NCBI GenBank assembly: GCA_041576015.1 | Contig: JBFGLT010000001.1 | Coordinates: 5,918 to 69,917, forward strand | Length of the DNA stretch: 64,000 bases | DNA from: Acidimicrobiales bacterium | GTDB taxonomy: Bacteria; Actinomycetota; Acidimicrobiia; Acidimicrobiales; SZUA-35 | Reading direction: 5' to 3' | Part shown: positions 49,794 to 54,626 of the stretch, in pieces | Layout of the letters: each line of letters begins with the position of its first letter | Numbering within the stretch: position 1 is the stretch's first letter | The notes under the pieces: generated by a model | Seen by the model: only the letters and a program-made list of their open reading frames with translations | Database searches by the model: none | What the model was told of the DNA's origin: nothing | Position numbers and translations under genes: made by a program

Positions 49794-51806
49794 TCACCCA
49801 CCTTCGGCCGGATCGGCGGCGACGTCGAGGTCGACGACGCTCGGCGAGTCGCTGGGTTCGACGGCCACCGGGTGTTCCGCTGGGGTCGTCGCAGTCACCT
49901 CTTCGTCACCGGCGGCCGGGCCGGGTTCCCCTGCGGGCGGGTCGGACTGCGGCGATTCAGCGGGTTCGCCCCCGGCCCGCCGGGCGTCCTCGGCGATGGC
50001 GGGTGTACCGCGCACGAGCGTTCGCGCCTGGCGCCACGCCGGCGTTGCCTCCGCCTGCCCCGGTGCGATCTTGAGCACCCGCAGGGCGTACTGCGCGATC
50101 TGCGCAAAGGTGGGCGCTGCCGCAGTCGTGGCGCTCGTCGCCGTCCGGGGTTCGTCGATCATCAACACGACCGAGAGTTCGGGATCGGCGGCCGGAACCA
50201 GTCCGCCGAACGTGGTCACGTATCGACGGTCGTTGTCGCTTCCGTAGGAGAGGCGTCCGCTGCCGTTGTCGAACACCTTCCAGGCCGTACCGGTCTTCCC
50301 GGCCACCTCGTAGCCCTCGATGGCGGCCTTGAACCCGGTGCCCTCCTCGCCGGTGACCGCGGTCATCATCTTCAGCATCTCGGCGGCTGCGTCGGGATCG
50401 ATCACGGGCCGCTCGATGGGATCGGAAATCAGATGGTCCTCGCCGTCGGCATCCTCGACATTGGCAACGATGACGGGCTGGACGTAGCGGCCGTCGTTCC
50501 CGATGGCGTTGAAGGCGGCCGCCAGCTGTAGGAGGTGGACCGTCATCCCCTGTCCGATCACGATCGATCCGGCGTCGCTCCCCTGCCACTCCGAAGGGTG
50601 CCGCAGCACCCCGGCCACCTCGCCGGCGAAGTCGAGCCCGGTCAGCTCGCCGAACCCGAAAGCCGAGGCGTATTCGTAGTACCGCTGGGGGCCCAGCTGC
50701 TGGGACAGACCGATCGTGGCCACGTTGCTCGACCGGGCCAGCGCATCGCCCAGGGTCATCTCCAGCTCCTCGTGGCGGGGGTGATCGAAGAACGGCTTGT
50801 CGGCCACCTCGATCGACCCGGGTACGGTGATCAGGTCACCGGCCTCGTAGCCGAGGTGGTCGGCGGCGGCGGCGAAGGCGACGATCTTCATCACGGAACC
50901 GGGCTCGAAGGTGTCGATCACCGCCTTGTTGTACGACGCCACCCCACAGGTGGTTTCGTCGATGCGGTCGACGCTCGCCATGCTGTAGATCTCGCCGGTC
51001 TTGGGATCGCTCACGATGGCCGCCGCCCCCATGGCGCCTAGTTTCTCGCACGTGTCGATCAGGATGGCTTCGGTGCCGAATTGGATCCGGTGGTCGAGCG
51101 TCAGCGTGATGTCGTACCCTCGCTCGGCAGGCTCGACGATCCGCTCGCCGACGCTGATCGACCCGAAGATGCCCCGCTCGTACCGCTCGAATCCCGACGT
51201 GCCGGCCAGCAGTTCCTCGAATTGCTGCTCGACGCCCGAGCGCCCGACCTCGTCGGGATCGACCCGGCCGATCACCGGTCTGGCCAGGTCGCCGGCGGGG
51301 TAAAGCCGATCCTCCTCAGGCCGGATCACGATGCCGTCGAACGCCTCGGTCGTGTCGGCGTCGGCGACCATTGTCCGGATGGCGGCCAGCGCTTCCTGAT
51401 CGCTCGTGGCCGCCACGACGTTGTACCGGTCCTCGTCGTTGGCGGGCAGAAGCCGGTCGTGGATGATGTTGGCCTCGATGCCCAACTCCGGGGCCAGGAG
51501 CGTCGCCGTCCAGGCGGGGTCGGCAACCAGTTGAGGGTCGGCGATGAGCAGCTGGGTCGGGGTGCTGGCGGCCAGGACGTACCCCTCCCGGTCGAGCACC
51601 TGACCGCGAAAACCAGCCAGCTTGCGGGTGGCGGTGCTCTGATCGAACGCCAGATCGCGGTATCGGTGGGGACGAACGGCCTGCAGGTCGACCAATGCCG
51701 CCATGAACACGACCATGACGACGAAGAAGCAGGCGAGAACGGCGAACACTTGCGGATGCTCGGCGAAGAGTGTCCGGGTCGACCGGCGGGGTCGGCGGCG
51801 GGTCAT
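49794..51806 (-). CDS. ftsI: Class B penicillin-binding protein (FtsI/PBP3-like transpeptidase) with Pro/Ala/Glu-rich C-terminal tail
   Basis: An N-terminal TM, then SVMK (SxxK), SSN and KTGTA motifs, then a ~90-aa low-complexity tail. Confidence 0.9.
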   Translation of the reverse strand: MTRRRPRRSTRTLFAEHPQVFAVLACFFVVMVVFMAALVDLQAVRPHRYRDLAFDQSTATRKLAGFRGQVLDREGYVLAASTPTQLLIADPQLVADPAWTATLLAPELGIEANIIHDRLLPANDEDRYNVVAATSDQEALAAIRTMVADADTTEAFDGIVIRPEEDRLYPAGDLARPVIGRVDPDEVGRSGVEQQFEELLAGTSGFERYERGIFGSISVGERIVEPAERGYDITLTLDHRIQFGTEAILIDTCEKLGAMGAAAIVSDPKTGEIYSMASVDRIDETTCGVASYNKAVIDTFEPGSVMKIVAFAAAADHLGYEAGDLITVPGSIEVADKPFFDHPRHEELEMTLGDALARSSNVATIGLSQQLGPQRYYEYASAFGFGELTGLDFAGEVAGVLRHPSEWQGSDAGSIVIGQGMTVHLLQLAAAFNAIGNDGRYVQPVIVANVEDADGEDHLISDPIERPVIDPDAAAEMLKMMTAVTGEEGTGFKAAIEGYEVAGKTGTAWKVFDNGSGRLSYGSDNDRRYVTTFGGLVPAADPELSVVLMIDEPRTATSATTAAAPTFAQIAQYALRVLKIAPGQAEATPAWRQARTLVRGTPAIAEDARRAGGEPAESPQSDPPAGEPGPAAGDEEVTATTPAEHPVAVEPSDSPSVVDLDVAADPAEGG

Positions 51807-52180
51807 CGCCCCACCGGTCGGGCAGCGACCAGGTAGACCGGACGGACCGCGCGCACCATGCCGAGCGCTCGCGCCCTCCGGACGATCTCCTCGGGCGAGG
51901 AGGCGACCACGACATCGCGCTCGAGCAGGGCGATGTCATTCTCGAGCTGCCCAATCTCGGCTTCCAGCGCGTCGAGCTCGCTCTGGGTCTGCACCAGCTG
52001 CGCTTGCACGAGGGCGACGCCGAAGAACACGCCGACCAGGAGGGTCAGAGCGATGAAGAGCAGCCGCCGGCGCCGGGCGCGGCTGCGGAGCGCGACGAAG
52101 TCGATCAGGAACAGCGACGGGGCCGAGGCGGCGCGACCGCGCCCCGCCGGCCGGCGGCGGGCCGGTGACGTCGTACTCAT
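51803..52180 (-). CDS. ftsL: FtsL/FtsB-like septum formation initiator
   Basis: 125 aa with a basic N-terminus, one TM and a leucine-zipper-like coiled coil (LVQTQSELDALEAEIGQLENDIALLERD). Canonical position between rsmH and ftsI. Confidence 0.7.
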   Translation of the reverse strand: MSTTSPARRRPAGRGRAASAPSLFLIDFVALRSRARRRRLLFIALTLLVGVFFGVALVQAQLVQTQSELDALEAEIGQLENDIALLERDVVVASSPEEIVRRARALGMVRAVRPVYLVAARPVGR

Positions 52181-53112
52181 GCCGCCTCCGGGCGATGCTG
52201 GATCGCCCGCAATCGGGCGCTTCGCGACCGCCGGTTGGCCTCCTGCTCGGCAGCGGTCGGCCGTCGGACCGCCGGGCGTAGGATCTCGAACGGCGGCGGG
52301 ACAGCCGGGACGGGAAGGCCGGGCGGGGTCGCGGAGGTCGTGTAGTGCCGGAAGACGCCCTTGACGATCCGGTCTTCACCCGAGTGATAGGTGATCACAG
52401 CGCCCCTCCCACCCGGAACCAGCAGGTCGAGCGCGGCGCGCAATGACGGCTCGAGAACCTCGAGCTCGTCGTTGACGGCGATGCGGATCGCTTGAAAGGT
52501 TCGCTTGGCGGGGTGACCGCCGCGGCGGCGGGCGGCGGCAGGGATGGCGGCCGCCGCGACCTCGGCCAGCTGGAGGGTCCGGTGGATCGGGCGGGCTGCC
52601 ACGATCGCCCGAGCGATCCGTTCGGCGTAGCGTTCGTCGCCACCCCGCCGGAGAGCCCGGGTCAACTGTGCCGCCGACCACGTGTTGACGACCTCGTCGG
52701 CGGTGAGCGCACTGGCCGGGTCCATTCGCATGTCGAGAGGGCCATCCCGCTGGAAGCTGAAGCCCCGCTGGGCTTGATCGAGTTGAGGCGAACTGACCCC
52801 CAGGTCGAACAGGAAGCCCGACAGGCGACCGACGCCTATCGAGCTCAACAGGTGGCCGAGCGCGTCGAACCGGCCGGCCAGGATCCGAACGCGACCGGCA
52901 AATCTGGCCAGGCGGTCCGCAGCAGCAGCCCGAGCTGCCGGATCCCGATCGATGCCGACGACATCGAGGTGAGGCGCCGCATCGAGAAGCAACTCTGCGT
53001 GTCCGCCGCCGCCCAGGGTCGCATCCAGCACCACACCGGGCGGCACCTGACCGAGGACCTCCACGACTTCTCCCGCCAGAACCGGCGCATGCACGAACCG
53101 CGAAGGCGTCAT
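52177..53112 (-). CDS. rsmH: 16S rRNA (cytosine1402-N4)-methyltransferase
   Basis: HAPVLAGEVVEVL, DATLGGGGHAELLL, DLGVSSPQLD and ITYHSGEDRIVK. Confidence 0.95.
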   Translation of the reverse strand: MTPSRFVHAPVLAGEVVEVLGQVPPGVVLDATLGGGGHAELLLDAAPHLDVVGIDRDPAARAAAADRLARFAGRVRILAGRFDALGHLLSSIGVGRLSGFLFDLGVSSPQLDQAQRGFSFQRDGPLDMRMDPASALTADEVVNTWSAAQLTRALRRGGDERYAERIARAIVAARPIHRTLQLAEVAAAAIPAAARRRGGHPAKRTFQAIRIAVNDELEVLEPSLRAALDLLVPGGRGAVITYHSGEDRIVKGVFRHYTTSATPPGLPVPAVPPPFEILRPAVRRPTAAEQEANRRSRSARLRAIQHRPEAA

Positions 53113-53347: not shown

Positions 53348-53773
53348 CTAGAGGCCCATCCGCTCCAGTGCGGCGCTCACGTTGGCATTGGCCTGATCGG
53401 TCCCGTGCATCTGGTGGAACAGGTCGCGCGGCCAGATCTCGATGCGGTTCAGGGCGCCGGACAGCACGACCGGCTGGCCGAGTCGAAAGCCCTCGAGCAG
53501 GATTCGGTTGATCGTGATGCGCCCGGCCGAGTCGATCCTGGCCCGCTGGGTCTCGCCGGTCAGCTTGCGGAACGTCACACCGTCGATCACGCCCTCCTGA
53601 CGGTGGTTGACCCAGTCGGCGGAGACGTCCAGGTAGCCGGCCTCGGACCAGACACCGAGCCGCTCGCCCATGCGGACGACGTACCCCAGCGAGCCGAGCT
53701 GCTCCCGGAAGTCCGGTGGGAGTACGACGCGACCTTTGTCGTCCAGCGTGTGCTCGTACTGGCCAACGAACAA
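53348..53773 (-). CDS. mraZ: Transcriptional regulator MraZ
   Basis: Two SpoVT/AbrB-type repeats: FVGQYEHTLDDKGRVVLP and DSAGRITINRILLE. The proposed TTG start at 53773 matches the usual MFxGxxxHxxDxKGR N-terminus. The track ORF extends to 53878 through the operator region. Confidence 0.85.
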   Translation of the reverse strand: MFVGQYEHTLDDKGRVVLPPDFREQLGSLGYVVRMGERLGVWSEAGYLDVSADWVNHRQEGVIDGVTFRKLTGETQRARIDSAGRITINRILLEGFRLGQPVVLSGALNRIEIWPRDLFHQMHGTDQANANVSAALERMGL

Positions 53774-53841
53774 CGTGCACCTCGCCTCCCCCGAGTCCTC
53801 TCGATGTGGTTCCGACTGCCACGCCAGACCCCGCATCTGCG

Positions 53842-53908
53842 GTGTGGCGCCGTGGGACTCTCCCCCACTTGTCCCCACCGTAACCCACTACGCCCCACTT
53901 GTCCACAC
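53842..53908 (-). promoter_or_regulatory. Array of 10-bp-phased GTGGGN boxes (putative MraZ operator / dcw promoter region)
   Basis: On the minus strand there are five boxes with exact 10-nt period: GTGTGG(53908)-ACAA-GTGGGG-CGTA-GTGGGT-TACG-GTGGGG-ACAA-GTGGGG(53863). Two inverted boxes lie on the plus strand: GTGTGG 53842..47 and GTGGGA 53852..57. The array sits 70-135 nt upstream of the mraZ start. Confidence 0.7.
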
Positions 53909-53957
53909 TTGGATCGGAAAATGGCGGACACCAACGCAGCGTTGCGACACTGGTGGT

Positions 53958-54626
53958 GTGCTACCGGGGAGAGGGCCGTGGTGGGAGGTCGTGACCACGC
54001 GCGGGACGGCGGCTTCGCTCCACGAACGGGCGCTTCCCGACCCCCCGAGACGATCGGCCTGGGTCCACGCCGTCACCGGTCCGGCGCTCGTGCTCGGATC
54101 CTCCCAGTCCGAACGCCAGGTGTCGACGTTCGATGTACGGCGTGACGGCATCGAGGTCTGCCGGCGACGCAGCGGTGGCGGTGCGGTCCTGGTGTCCCCC
54201 GGCGACACCTGGATCGACGTGCTCGTCGGACGGGACGATCCGCTCTGGAGCGACGATGTGACGGTCGCGTTCGGGTGGCTCGGTCAGGTCTGGCAGCGGA
54301 CCCTCGCTGCGGTCGGAATCGACGAGACCATCGTGCACTCGGGTCCGCTCCGGAACCGGCGGGCCGGCGGGGTGGTGTGTTTCGCCGGCACCGGTCCCGG
54401 CGAGGTCGTCGGTCCGGATCAGACGAAGCTGGTCGGGATGTCGCAGCGACGGACTCGCTCGATCGCTCGCTTCCAGACCATGGCTCCCTCGCGGCAGCCG
54501 CTGGCGGACACCCTGCGCTACCTCGAACCGGCGGCCGTCTCGGGGATCGACCCGGACACCGAGGTCGGCGTCACCGTCGATGCGGCTGTTTTGACCACCG
54601 CCTTTCTCGCCGAGCTCCACCGCTGA
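53958..54626 (+). CDS. Biotin/lipoate A/B protein ligase family (LplA/LipB-like) protein
   Basis: CRRRSGGGAVLV (RRxSGGGAV motif) and TKLVGMSQRRTR (conserved Lys-x-x-G-x-[AS]-Q). The start is uncertain (GTG at 53958 or 53991). The track ORF from 53670 runs through the mraZ operator. Confidence 0.55.
   Translation: MLPGRGPWWEVVTTRGTAASLHERALPDPPRRSAWVHAVTGPALVLGSSQSERQVSTFDVRRDGIEVCRRRSGGGAVLVSPGDTWIDVLVGRDDPLWSDDVTVAFGWLGQVWQRTLAAVGIDETIVHSGPLRNRRAGGVVCFAGTGPGEVVGPDQTKLVGMSQRRTRSIARFQTMAPSRQPLADTLRYLEPAAVSGIDPDTEVGVTVDAAVLTTAFLAELHR

Follow-up and report, generated by a model that had tools for sequence, protein, structure and literature searches.

An array of G-rich boxes ahead of mraZ in an Acidimicrobiales bacterium raises two questions, namely whether the array is a binding site for MraZ itself and what part is played by two of its boxes that face the other way. 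The array lies in a stretch of 64,000 nt (64 kb) that was analysed as a whole, hereafter the window, and the original prediction held that five direct and two inverted boxes make up a single MraZ operator, longer than usual and possibly shared with a divergent LplA-like gene.

The genes on either side were correctly assigned in that prediction, with Pfam E-values of 3e-21 for mraZ and 6e-11 for the LplA-like gene, and the intergenic length of 184 nt is also right. The gene order mraZ, rsmH, ftsL-like, PBP places the array at the head of the dcw genes, 69–135 nt upstream of the TTG codon of mraZ (Table 1). Alignment with relatives confirms the MraZ N-terminus as MFVGQYEH, and relatives of the LplA-like protein align with it from residue 1. 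A full-length alignment with the M. genitalium structure 9qlr shows that D11, K13, R15, D81 and R85 are kept in the window MraZ; the two DXXXR motifs and the K13/R15/R86 contacts that accompany an MraZ operator are represented here by the conserved D11-K13-R15 and D81-R85.

On the minus strand, the hexamers GTGTGG (53908..53903), GTGGGG (53898..53893), GTGGGT (53888..53883), GTGGGG (53878..53873) and GTGGGG (53868..53863) follow one another with an exact 10-nt period, and on the plus strand GTGTGG (53842-53847) and GTGGGA (53852-53857) are likewise 10 nt apart. Five direct boxes and two inverted copies can thus be read directly, at the coordinates first given for them. The box array is far beyond chance: the pattern GTGKG-N5-GTGKG-N5-GTGKG has three overlapping matches in the 64-kb window, all at the array, and none in 100 dinucleotide shuffles, and GTGGG-N5-GTGGG also has three matches, all at the array, against a shuffle mean of 0.24. 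Published MraZ operators consist of three or four GTG(G/T) boxes with 6-nt spacers, with three in most bacteria and four in M. genitalium (PMC12957436). By the same definition, which asks for at least three direct boxes (PMC12957436), the array has five in phase. Boxes A to D share one orientation, whereas D' and C' are inverted; a literature search found no inverted boxes in published MraZ operators, and D' and C' are therefore not filed here as MraZ boxes. Nothing relevant on a 'TGGGN'-type box came up in the literature either. The array is very probably an MraZ operator: this reading is carried by the boxes, their 10-bp period, their place at the head of dcw, the residues of the cognate protein and the conservation of the boxes, and it is in its details that the original prediction has to be revised.

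Table 1. Features of the mraZ upstream region and adjoining genes, in window coordinates; positions such as -28 or +3 are relative to the predicted transcription start, and identities are mean majority-base identities.
Feature	Position	Strand	Evidence or remark
A/T-rich patch ATTTT, about -52..-48, possibly UP-element-like	53918..53922	-	Sequence and clade layout
Distal 'box 0' GTGTG, overlapping the -35 hexamer	53904..53908	-	In phase only in the window and L107
Predicted -35 hexamer TGGACA	53900..53905	-	All Acidimicrobiia loci keep T(G/A/T)GACA or TTGCNN, 17-18 nt ahead of TAnnnT
Box A GTGGG, about -28..-24	53894..53898	-	Identity 0.98, 21 loci
Box B GTGGG, about -18..-14	53884..53888	-	Identity 0.82, 21 loci; the majority of the clade has GGGGG, the second clade GTGTC
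Predicted -10 hexamer TACGGT (TAnnnT)	53877..53882	-	TA and the box C T in every locus examined
Box C GTGGG, about -8..-4	53874..53878	-	Identity 0.85, 21 loci; 1.00 in the window clade
Predicted transcription start, an A (+/-2 nt) that lies 7 nt beyond the -10 hexamer	53870	-	Inferred from promoter geometry
Box D GTGGG, fourth direct box and predicted 5' stem arm, about +3..+7	53864..53868	-	Identity 0.96, 21 loci
D', CCCAC on the mraZ strand (GTGGG on +), about +15..+19, predicted 3' stem arm	53852..53856	-	Identity 0.92, 21 loci
C', CACAC on the mraZ strand (GTGTG on +), 10 nt after D'	53842..53846	-	Weakly conserved
Predicted 5'-terminal stem-loop, 6 bp including one G.U, 5-nt loop	53852..53868	-	MFE and centroid structures of the window leader
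Second predicted leader hairpin, GCGCCA..CCGC-AGAU-GCGG..UGGCGU	53821..53850	-	MFE structure of the window leader; C' in its 5' arm
Shine-Dalgarno/start block GGGGGAGGCGAGGTGCACG before TTG	53774..53795	-	Near-identical in 13/13 window-clade loci
mraZ, 141 aa, TTG start, first dcw gene	53348..53773	-	Pfam MraZ, 3.1e-21
rsmH	52177..53112		ORF list
ftsL-like gene	51803..52180		ORF list
PBP gene	49794..51806		ORF list
Divergent gene with LplA-B_cat domain, 222 aa, GTG start	53958..54626	+	Pfam, 6.4e-11

Relatives were retrieved through protein similarity and not through the DNA motif. The comparative set comprises about 25 Acidimicrobiia loci, made up of 13 distinct loci of the window clade (MraZ 66–87% identical), a single locus at 50% identity and roughly 12 from a second Acidimicrobiales clade (about 40%), and 116 loci were examined overall. 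In 21 Acidimicrobiia loci, compared in a motif-anchored alignment, the block from box A to D' is gapless. It reads, in order, a -35-like T(G/A/T)GACA (TTGCNN in the second clade), 1–2 nt, A, N5, B, a spacer that always has TA at positions 2–3, C, N5, D, N7 and CCCA(C/T), the last being D'. Mean majority-base identity is 0.46–0.73 in the spacers and loop, compared with the values listed in Table 1 for boxes A to D and for D'; in the second clade, box C takes the forms GTGTC, TTGGC or TTGTC. A locus outside the sample, L120, follows the same plan. Loci L118 and L119 keep the promoter and boxes A to C and have lost D and D', which are also lost in L004 and L005 and weakened in L110. The comparison with relatives that had been proposed as a check bears out boxes A to D and D', finds C' weakly conserved and does not bear out box 0. 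Judged by this conservation, the number of putative MraZ boxes is four, which matches the four-subunit complex seen by cryo-EM.

The seven boxes are accordingly not equivalents of one another, as had been claimed. Four direct boxes are conserved, and the fifth coincides with the -35 element and falls into 10-nt phase only in the window and in its closest relative, whose MraZ is 87% identical (L107); elsewhere in the clade the box 0 site reads GGTGGACA, GGTAGACA, GTTTACA or TTGGACA. Box 0 would thus be primarily the -35 element and at most a lineage-specific fifth contact. The window also holds a 16-nt near-duplicate, CCCCACTTGTCC[C/A]CAC, at 53863-53878 and 53893-53908, 30 nt apart, which makes the C-D unit resemble the box 0-A unit, ACAA spacer included. 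No such similarity is present in L107; the near-duplicate is specific to the window genome and may reflect local conversion or convergence.

The claim that the array is longer than usual has weakened. In a survey of phased runs that used a loose box definition, runs of four to six GTGG/ATGG boxes were found upstream of mraZ in unrelated lineages as well (L016, L040, L050, L052 and L106, among others), which makes the length of the array unremarkable, and four boxes have been published for M. genitalium (PMC12957436). The statement that there are usually three boxes appears to be a generalisation from model organisms. Box sequence also varies within Acidimicrobiales: in second-clade loci (L002, L004, L005, L031-L036 and L120), boxes B and C read GTGTCA, e.g. 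GTGTCAtaagGTGTCAC, a GTGT form such as Mycoplasma operators typically have, and boxes A and D stay GTGGG, giving two box types within one operator.

A predicted promoter shares this DNA with the boxes. In the window it reads TGGACA, N17, TACGGT; across the clade the spacer is N17-18 and contains boxes A and B, and the second-clade counterpart is TTGCNN-N17-TAnnnT. The last two bases of the -10 hexamer are the first two of box C, such that the final T of TAnnnT is the T of that box. TAnnnT is the actinobacterial form of the -10 element. The pair of hexamers has the geometry of a sigma-70/SigA-type promoter, with the two elements 17+/-1 nt apart and conserved in relatives. A scan of both strands from 53600 to 54200 for E. 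coli-consensus promoters and terminators returned nothing, the -10 hexamer fitting only the actinobacterial TAnnnT, and the promoter is for that reason deduced from conservation. The same layout of -35, box, box, -10, box, box recurs in L037, L052 and L105/L106. Boxes A to D are thus probably interleaved with the mraZ promoter. Further upstream, the A/T-rich patch at 53918-53922 reads TTTGT(C/T) in relatives; its position is conserved in the clade amid GC-rich surroundings, and it may be an UP-like element.

The arrangement can be set beside the three operators known from model species. Read directly, the E. coli K-12 sequence has TTGACA-N18-TAAACT, then GTGGGaaattGTGGGgcaaaGTGGG. In the work of Eraso et al. 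in 2014, the E. coli MraZ operator is reported to consist of three direct repeats between Pmra and mraZ. The window array shares with it the pentamer GTGGG, the 10-bp period, the position at the head of dcw and, presumably, autorepression, but the three E. coli boxes all lie downstream of the promoter and have no inverted copy, whereas the window has four conserved boxes (five phased) interleaved with the -35 and -10 elements. In B. subtilis, three GTGG[A/T]G repeats are needed for repression by MraZ, which acts through R15 and R86 (bioRxiv 10.1101/2022.02.09.479790). The GTGG-core repeats, their 10-bp period and their association with the mra promoter are common to both systems; B. subtilis differs in having three repeats, and no inverted element has been described there. 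M. genitalium provides the structural reference, in which the MraZ ring opens and sets four head-to-tail subunits along the DNA, with the 'cradle' motif (K13, R15, R86) in successive major grooves (PMC12957436), one subunit per box. The transcription start in this species lies inside box 1 (PMC12957436). Four direct boxes, a 10-bp period, a start site within the array (predicted here) and conserved K13/R15/R86 contacts link the window to M. genitalium; the M. genitalium box, however, is AAAGTGT and not GTGGG, its context is AT-rich, and no inverted box or leader stem has been reported.

Shared control of the LplA-like gene was the second part of the original prediction. This gene, whose product falls far short of the NCBIfam cut-offs that define true lipoate-protein ligases and has weak ligase matches only, adjoins mraZ across the two Acidimicrobiia clades and at certain more distant loci of high GC content (it lies upstream of mraZ in L001-L005, L028-L037, L039, L105-L116 and L118). 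Synteny is thus conserved, but the distance from the array to the LplA-like start is not: measured from box A it amounts to 59 nt both in the window and in L107, and to 69, 104, 113, 114, 124, 127, 128 or 224 nt in other clade members, while the register of the array with the mraZ promoter is fixed. On account of this variation, the comparison leaves shared control unsupported. Inspection by eye of the plus strand around the inverted boxes found neither a TAnnnT nor a -35 element in the right place, and a mirrored LplA-like promoter that would use the two inverted boxes was rejected for want of such hexamers. Shared control is possible in the window genome, given the proximity of the two genes there.

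The inverted boxes pose the more demanding question. The inverted pair is real, and D' always lies exactly 7 nt after box D and is conserved as well as the direct boxes are. GTGGG-N7-CCCA(C/T) is almost confined to Acidimicrobiia among the 116 loci examined. Within one genome the palindrome is not significant, as GTGGG-N7-CCCAC occurs once in the 64-kb window and at least once in 16 of 100 shuffles; its significance comes from conservation and not from the single-genome count. The second inverted box is weaker. C' stands 10 nt after D' in 11 of 13 window-clade members, with a 5-nt spacer that varies in sequence and is constant in length, and its identity is 0.75 against 0.51 for its flanks in the window clade only; it is absent in L108, L115 and the second clade. 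D' alone is retained in the second clade, which would suit one arm of a stem and make a poor single site for a cooperative binder.

Such a stem is predicted for the mRNA. Together with flanking bases, D and D' can pair over 7 bp in most clade members, and when 13 clade leaders were folded independently the stem appeared in 12; it is predicted to begin at +2/+3 of the RNA. The 7-bp stem was tested in 22 distinct sequences against 500 shuffles, with slid registers as controls. Standard pairs are formed in 89% of cells, versus 83.2% after shuffling, the covariation score is 0.229 versus 0.130, and 11 cells versus 4.9 are changed on both sides, with none of the 500 shuffles reaching the observed value in any of the three measures; slid registers are 32–51% paired. 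Double changes occur at three pairs of the stem. When RNAalifold was run on the first 60 nt of 13 leaders with no structure imposed, it returned exactly this 7-bp stem as the sole consensus element, with outer pair AU 6, UG 3, UA 2, next pair GC 9, AU 3, GU 1, and innermost pair AU 6, GU 3, UG 2. Neither the outer nor the innermost pair belongs to the GTGGG/CCCAC pentamers, and among them are T.G and G.T combinations, which lack symmetry in duplex DNA and are not predicted for a symmetric protein site; the covariation is hence of the kind expected of RNA. Where D' has changed on its own (to CCCAT three times independently and to CCCGC once), a wobble pair can in every case still form in the sense RNA. 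A permissive search of Rfam 15 gave only a spurious sub-threshold match (E = 0.27).

Several findings count against the stem. The five core pairs are equally explained by an inverted box, the innermost (sixth) pair is broken in about 5 of the 22 sequences, and the constant 7-nt loop and 5-nt D'-C' spacer look like a constraint on DNA spacing. The two arms are complementary, with compensatory or wobble changes, though over few independent events and with core pairs confounded with the box sequence. The double change ATGGG/CCCAT, which is probably one event, is not decisive, as MraZ boxes elsewhere tolerate ATGG, that is, G to A at box position 1. On this evidence the chances that D:D' functions as an RNA stem are evenly balanced, and the broader proposal that, in Acidimicrobiia, the last MraZ box doubles as the 5' arm of a conserved stem-loop with which the dcw mRNA begins is offered a shade more tentatively. 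That D' and C' are reversed MraZ sites seems unlikely. The two roles are not mutually exclusive, and of the inverted pair as first described it is the reading as MraZ boxes that has lost ground: C' is weak, and an RNA stem is at least as likely as an inverted MraZ site.

Reversed sites are the substance of the rival that survives best, in which all seven boxes bind MraZ, a second oligomer sits head-to-head on D'/C' and reaches to about +30, and the LplA-like gene is controlled as well. The conservation of D' on a par with the direct boxes, the invariant 7 nt between D and D', the spacing of C' exactly 10 bp from D' in 11/13 clade members and the synteny of the LplA-like gene with mraZ in both clades are all in keeping with this model, as is the finding that an octamer can bind a single box and tolerate altered spacing (PMC12957436). 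It is harder to reconcile with the cryo-EM complex, in which four head-to-tail subunits occupy four direct boxes and the same oligomer cannot reach an inverted one, and with the presence of a single inverted box in the second clade. The asymmetric T.G/G.T covariation outside the pentamers would not be expected of a symmetric protein site, and in the lineage with CCCGC the box becomes GCGGG, breaking its TG core, yet a U.G pair is kept in the RNA. The 59–224 nt between the array and the LplA-like start also tell against it, and we regard the seven-box model as doubtful.

We know of no actinobacterial regulator motif that matches GTGGG-N7-CCCAC. The inverted repeat could nevertheless be the site of another dimeric regulator that overlaps the last MraZ box and gives dcw a second input, as its fixed spacing and variable centre would allow; MtrA, for example, binds the mraZ promoter in the actinobacterium Dietzia (PMC9602371). 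The half-site is, however, no different from the MraZ box, the wobble-type changes lack symmetry in the DNA, and the palindrome occurs once in the 64-kb window, all of which make this explanation improbable. Even less credible is selection of the G-rich boxes for a non-template-strand G-quadruplex through which mraZ transcription would be modulated, a role proposed in S. aureus. The minus strand at 53862-53896 does fit the canonical pattern, G3+N1-7 x4, as one of four such sites in the 64-kb, 67.6% GC window, and a G-quadruplex in the S. aureus mraZ promoter, whose G-tracts likewise come from the MraZ box region, has been characterised (PMC11796246). The loops here are long (6–7 nt), however, and any run of GTGGG boxes with a 10-nt period would give the pattern of itself. 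The four G3+ tracts, whose loops are of up to 7 nt, are conserved only within the window clade: the GTGTC form of boxes B and C makes a G-quadruplex impossible in the second clade, while the architecture is kept. The G-quadruplex was rejected as a selected feature on these grounds, and in the window it is probably a by-product. Least tenable of all, and barely worth retaining, is the notion of a chance or compositional repeat, which 0/100 shuffles reproduce, or of an N-terminal coding extension of mraZ, which was rejected because leaders are 56–171 nt long in relatives and fall in all three frames and because the relatives start with ATG/TTG-FVGQYEH. What speaks for such an extension is a 176-aa ORF (53348..53878, minus strand) that opens at the box C GTG in the window, together with database entries in which MraZ has been called as 154–197 aa (P0002, P0007-P0010) via GTG/TTG codons within the operator. 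These extended starts are mis-annotations, the true start being xFVGQYEH.

Other parts of the region show features of their own. The GGGGGAGGCGAGGTGCACG-TTG block is near-invariant in the window clade (L107-L116, L027-L029), in which MraZ proteins are only 66–87% identical and the leader outside the block varies freely in sequence and length; its conservation exceeds what a Shine-Dalgarno site alone would need. The whole 100-nt leader of the window has an unremarkable folding energy (z = -0.79), and for this reason only the first hairpin is claimed. Hairpins that use C' in a similar way to the second one are present in single folds of L107, L111 and L027; RNAalifold found no consensus for it in the first 60 nt of 13 leaders, and a conserved second hairpin using C' is a possibility. 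In every second-clade locus, a palindrome resembling an SOS box, CGAAC-N4-GTT(C/T)G, lies about 60–70 nt upstream of box A (L001, L003-L005, L031-L036 and L118-L120, by eye in L118-L120 and, in degenerate form, in L110). It is absent from the intergenic region of the window and from the window clade and was rejected as a shared feature, being found in the second clade only, where it hints that LexA may act on the dcw promoter or on the divergent gene.

The explanation that we consider the best, and rather likely, is a promoter-embedded autoregulatory MraZ operator whose box D also pairs with D' in the mRNA. In this scheme the four boxes A to D, at about -28, -18, -8 and +3 with a 10-bp period, would lie among TGGACA and TACGGT, and we infer that an open-ring MraZ oligomer bound across them would occlude RNA polymerase and so repress its own operon. 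Box 0, which in this lineage is an in-phase GTGTG, may give a weak fifth contact. D' would be transcribed (about +15..+19) and pair with box D in a stem-loop at the extreme 5' end of the mRNA, such that the same five bases would serve as a repressor site in DNA and as a stem arm in RNA. Terminal stem-loops of this kind stabilise bacterial mRNAs, as in the E. coli ompA and B. subtilis aprE/ermC leaders, and from these established examples the most likely role of the stem in the RNA would be to shield the 5' end from 5'-end-dependent RNases. Like those leaders, the predicted structure has a short stem 0–2 nt from the predicted 5' end, a variable loop and preserved pairing; it differs in that its 5' arm would also be a repressor box, and in that its position at the 5' end derives from the predicted transcription start.

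Few bacterial regulators are as widespread as MraZ, and a small number of model species have supplied the definition of its operator, which counts three direct repeats or, exceptionally, four. Read as an autoregulatory MraZ site merged with the mraZ/dcw promoter, the window array belongs to a familiar class of element; what goes beyond the textbook is a predicted four-box, promoter-interleaved architecture that is conserved across Acidimicrobiia, and a conserved inverted copy of the last box, which most likely contributes to a stem-loop at the 5' end of the leader. Outside the model organisms, four to six boxes in one array are a common finding, and the current structural model leaves the conserved inverted copy unexplained. 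If MraZ does bind the inverted boxes, the model of the oligomer on DNA would need a second, opposed assembly, with MraZ oligomers placed head-to-head, which the cryo-EM structures do not show. In practical terms the gain is modest: mraZ starts and promoters can be annotated better in Acidimicrobiia, and binding studies have a defined fragment to work with. If instead the D:D' stem proves true, one sequence at the start of the cell-division operon would be an operator and would also give the mRNA a structured 5' end, and such a dual-use element would couple transcriptional autorepression with post-transcriptional control of that operon.
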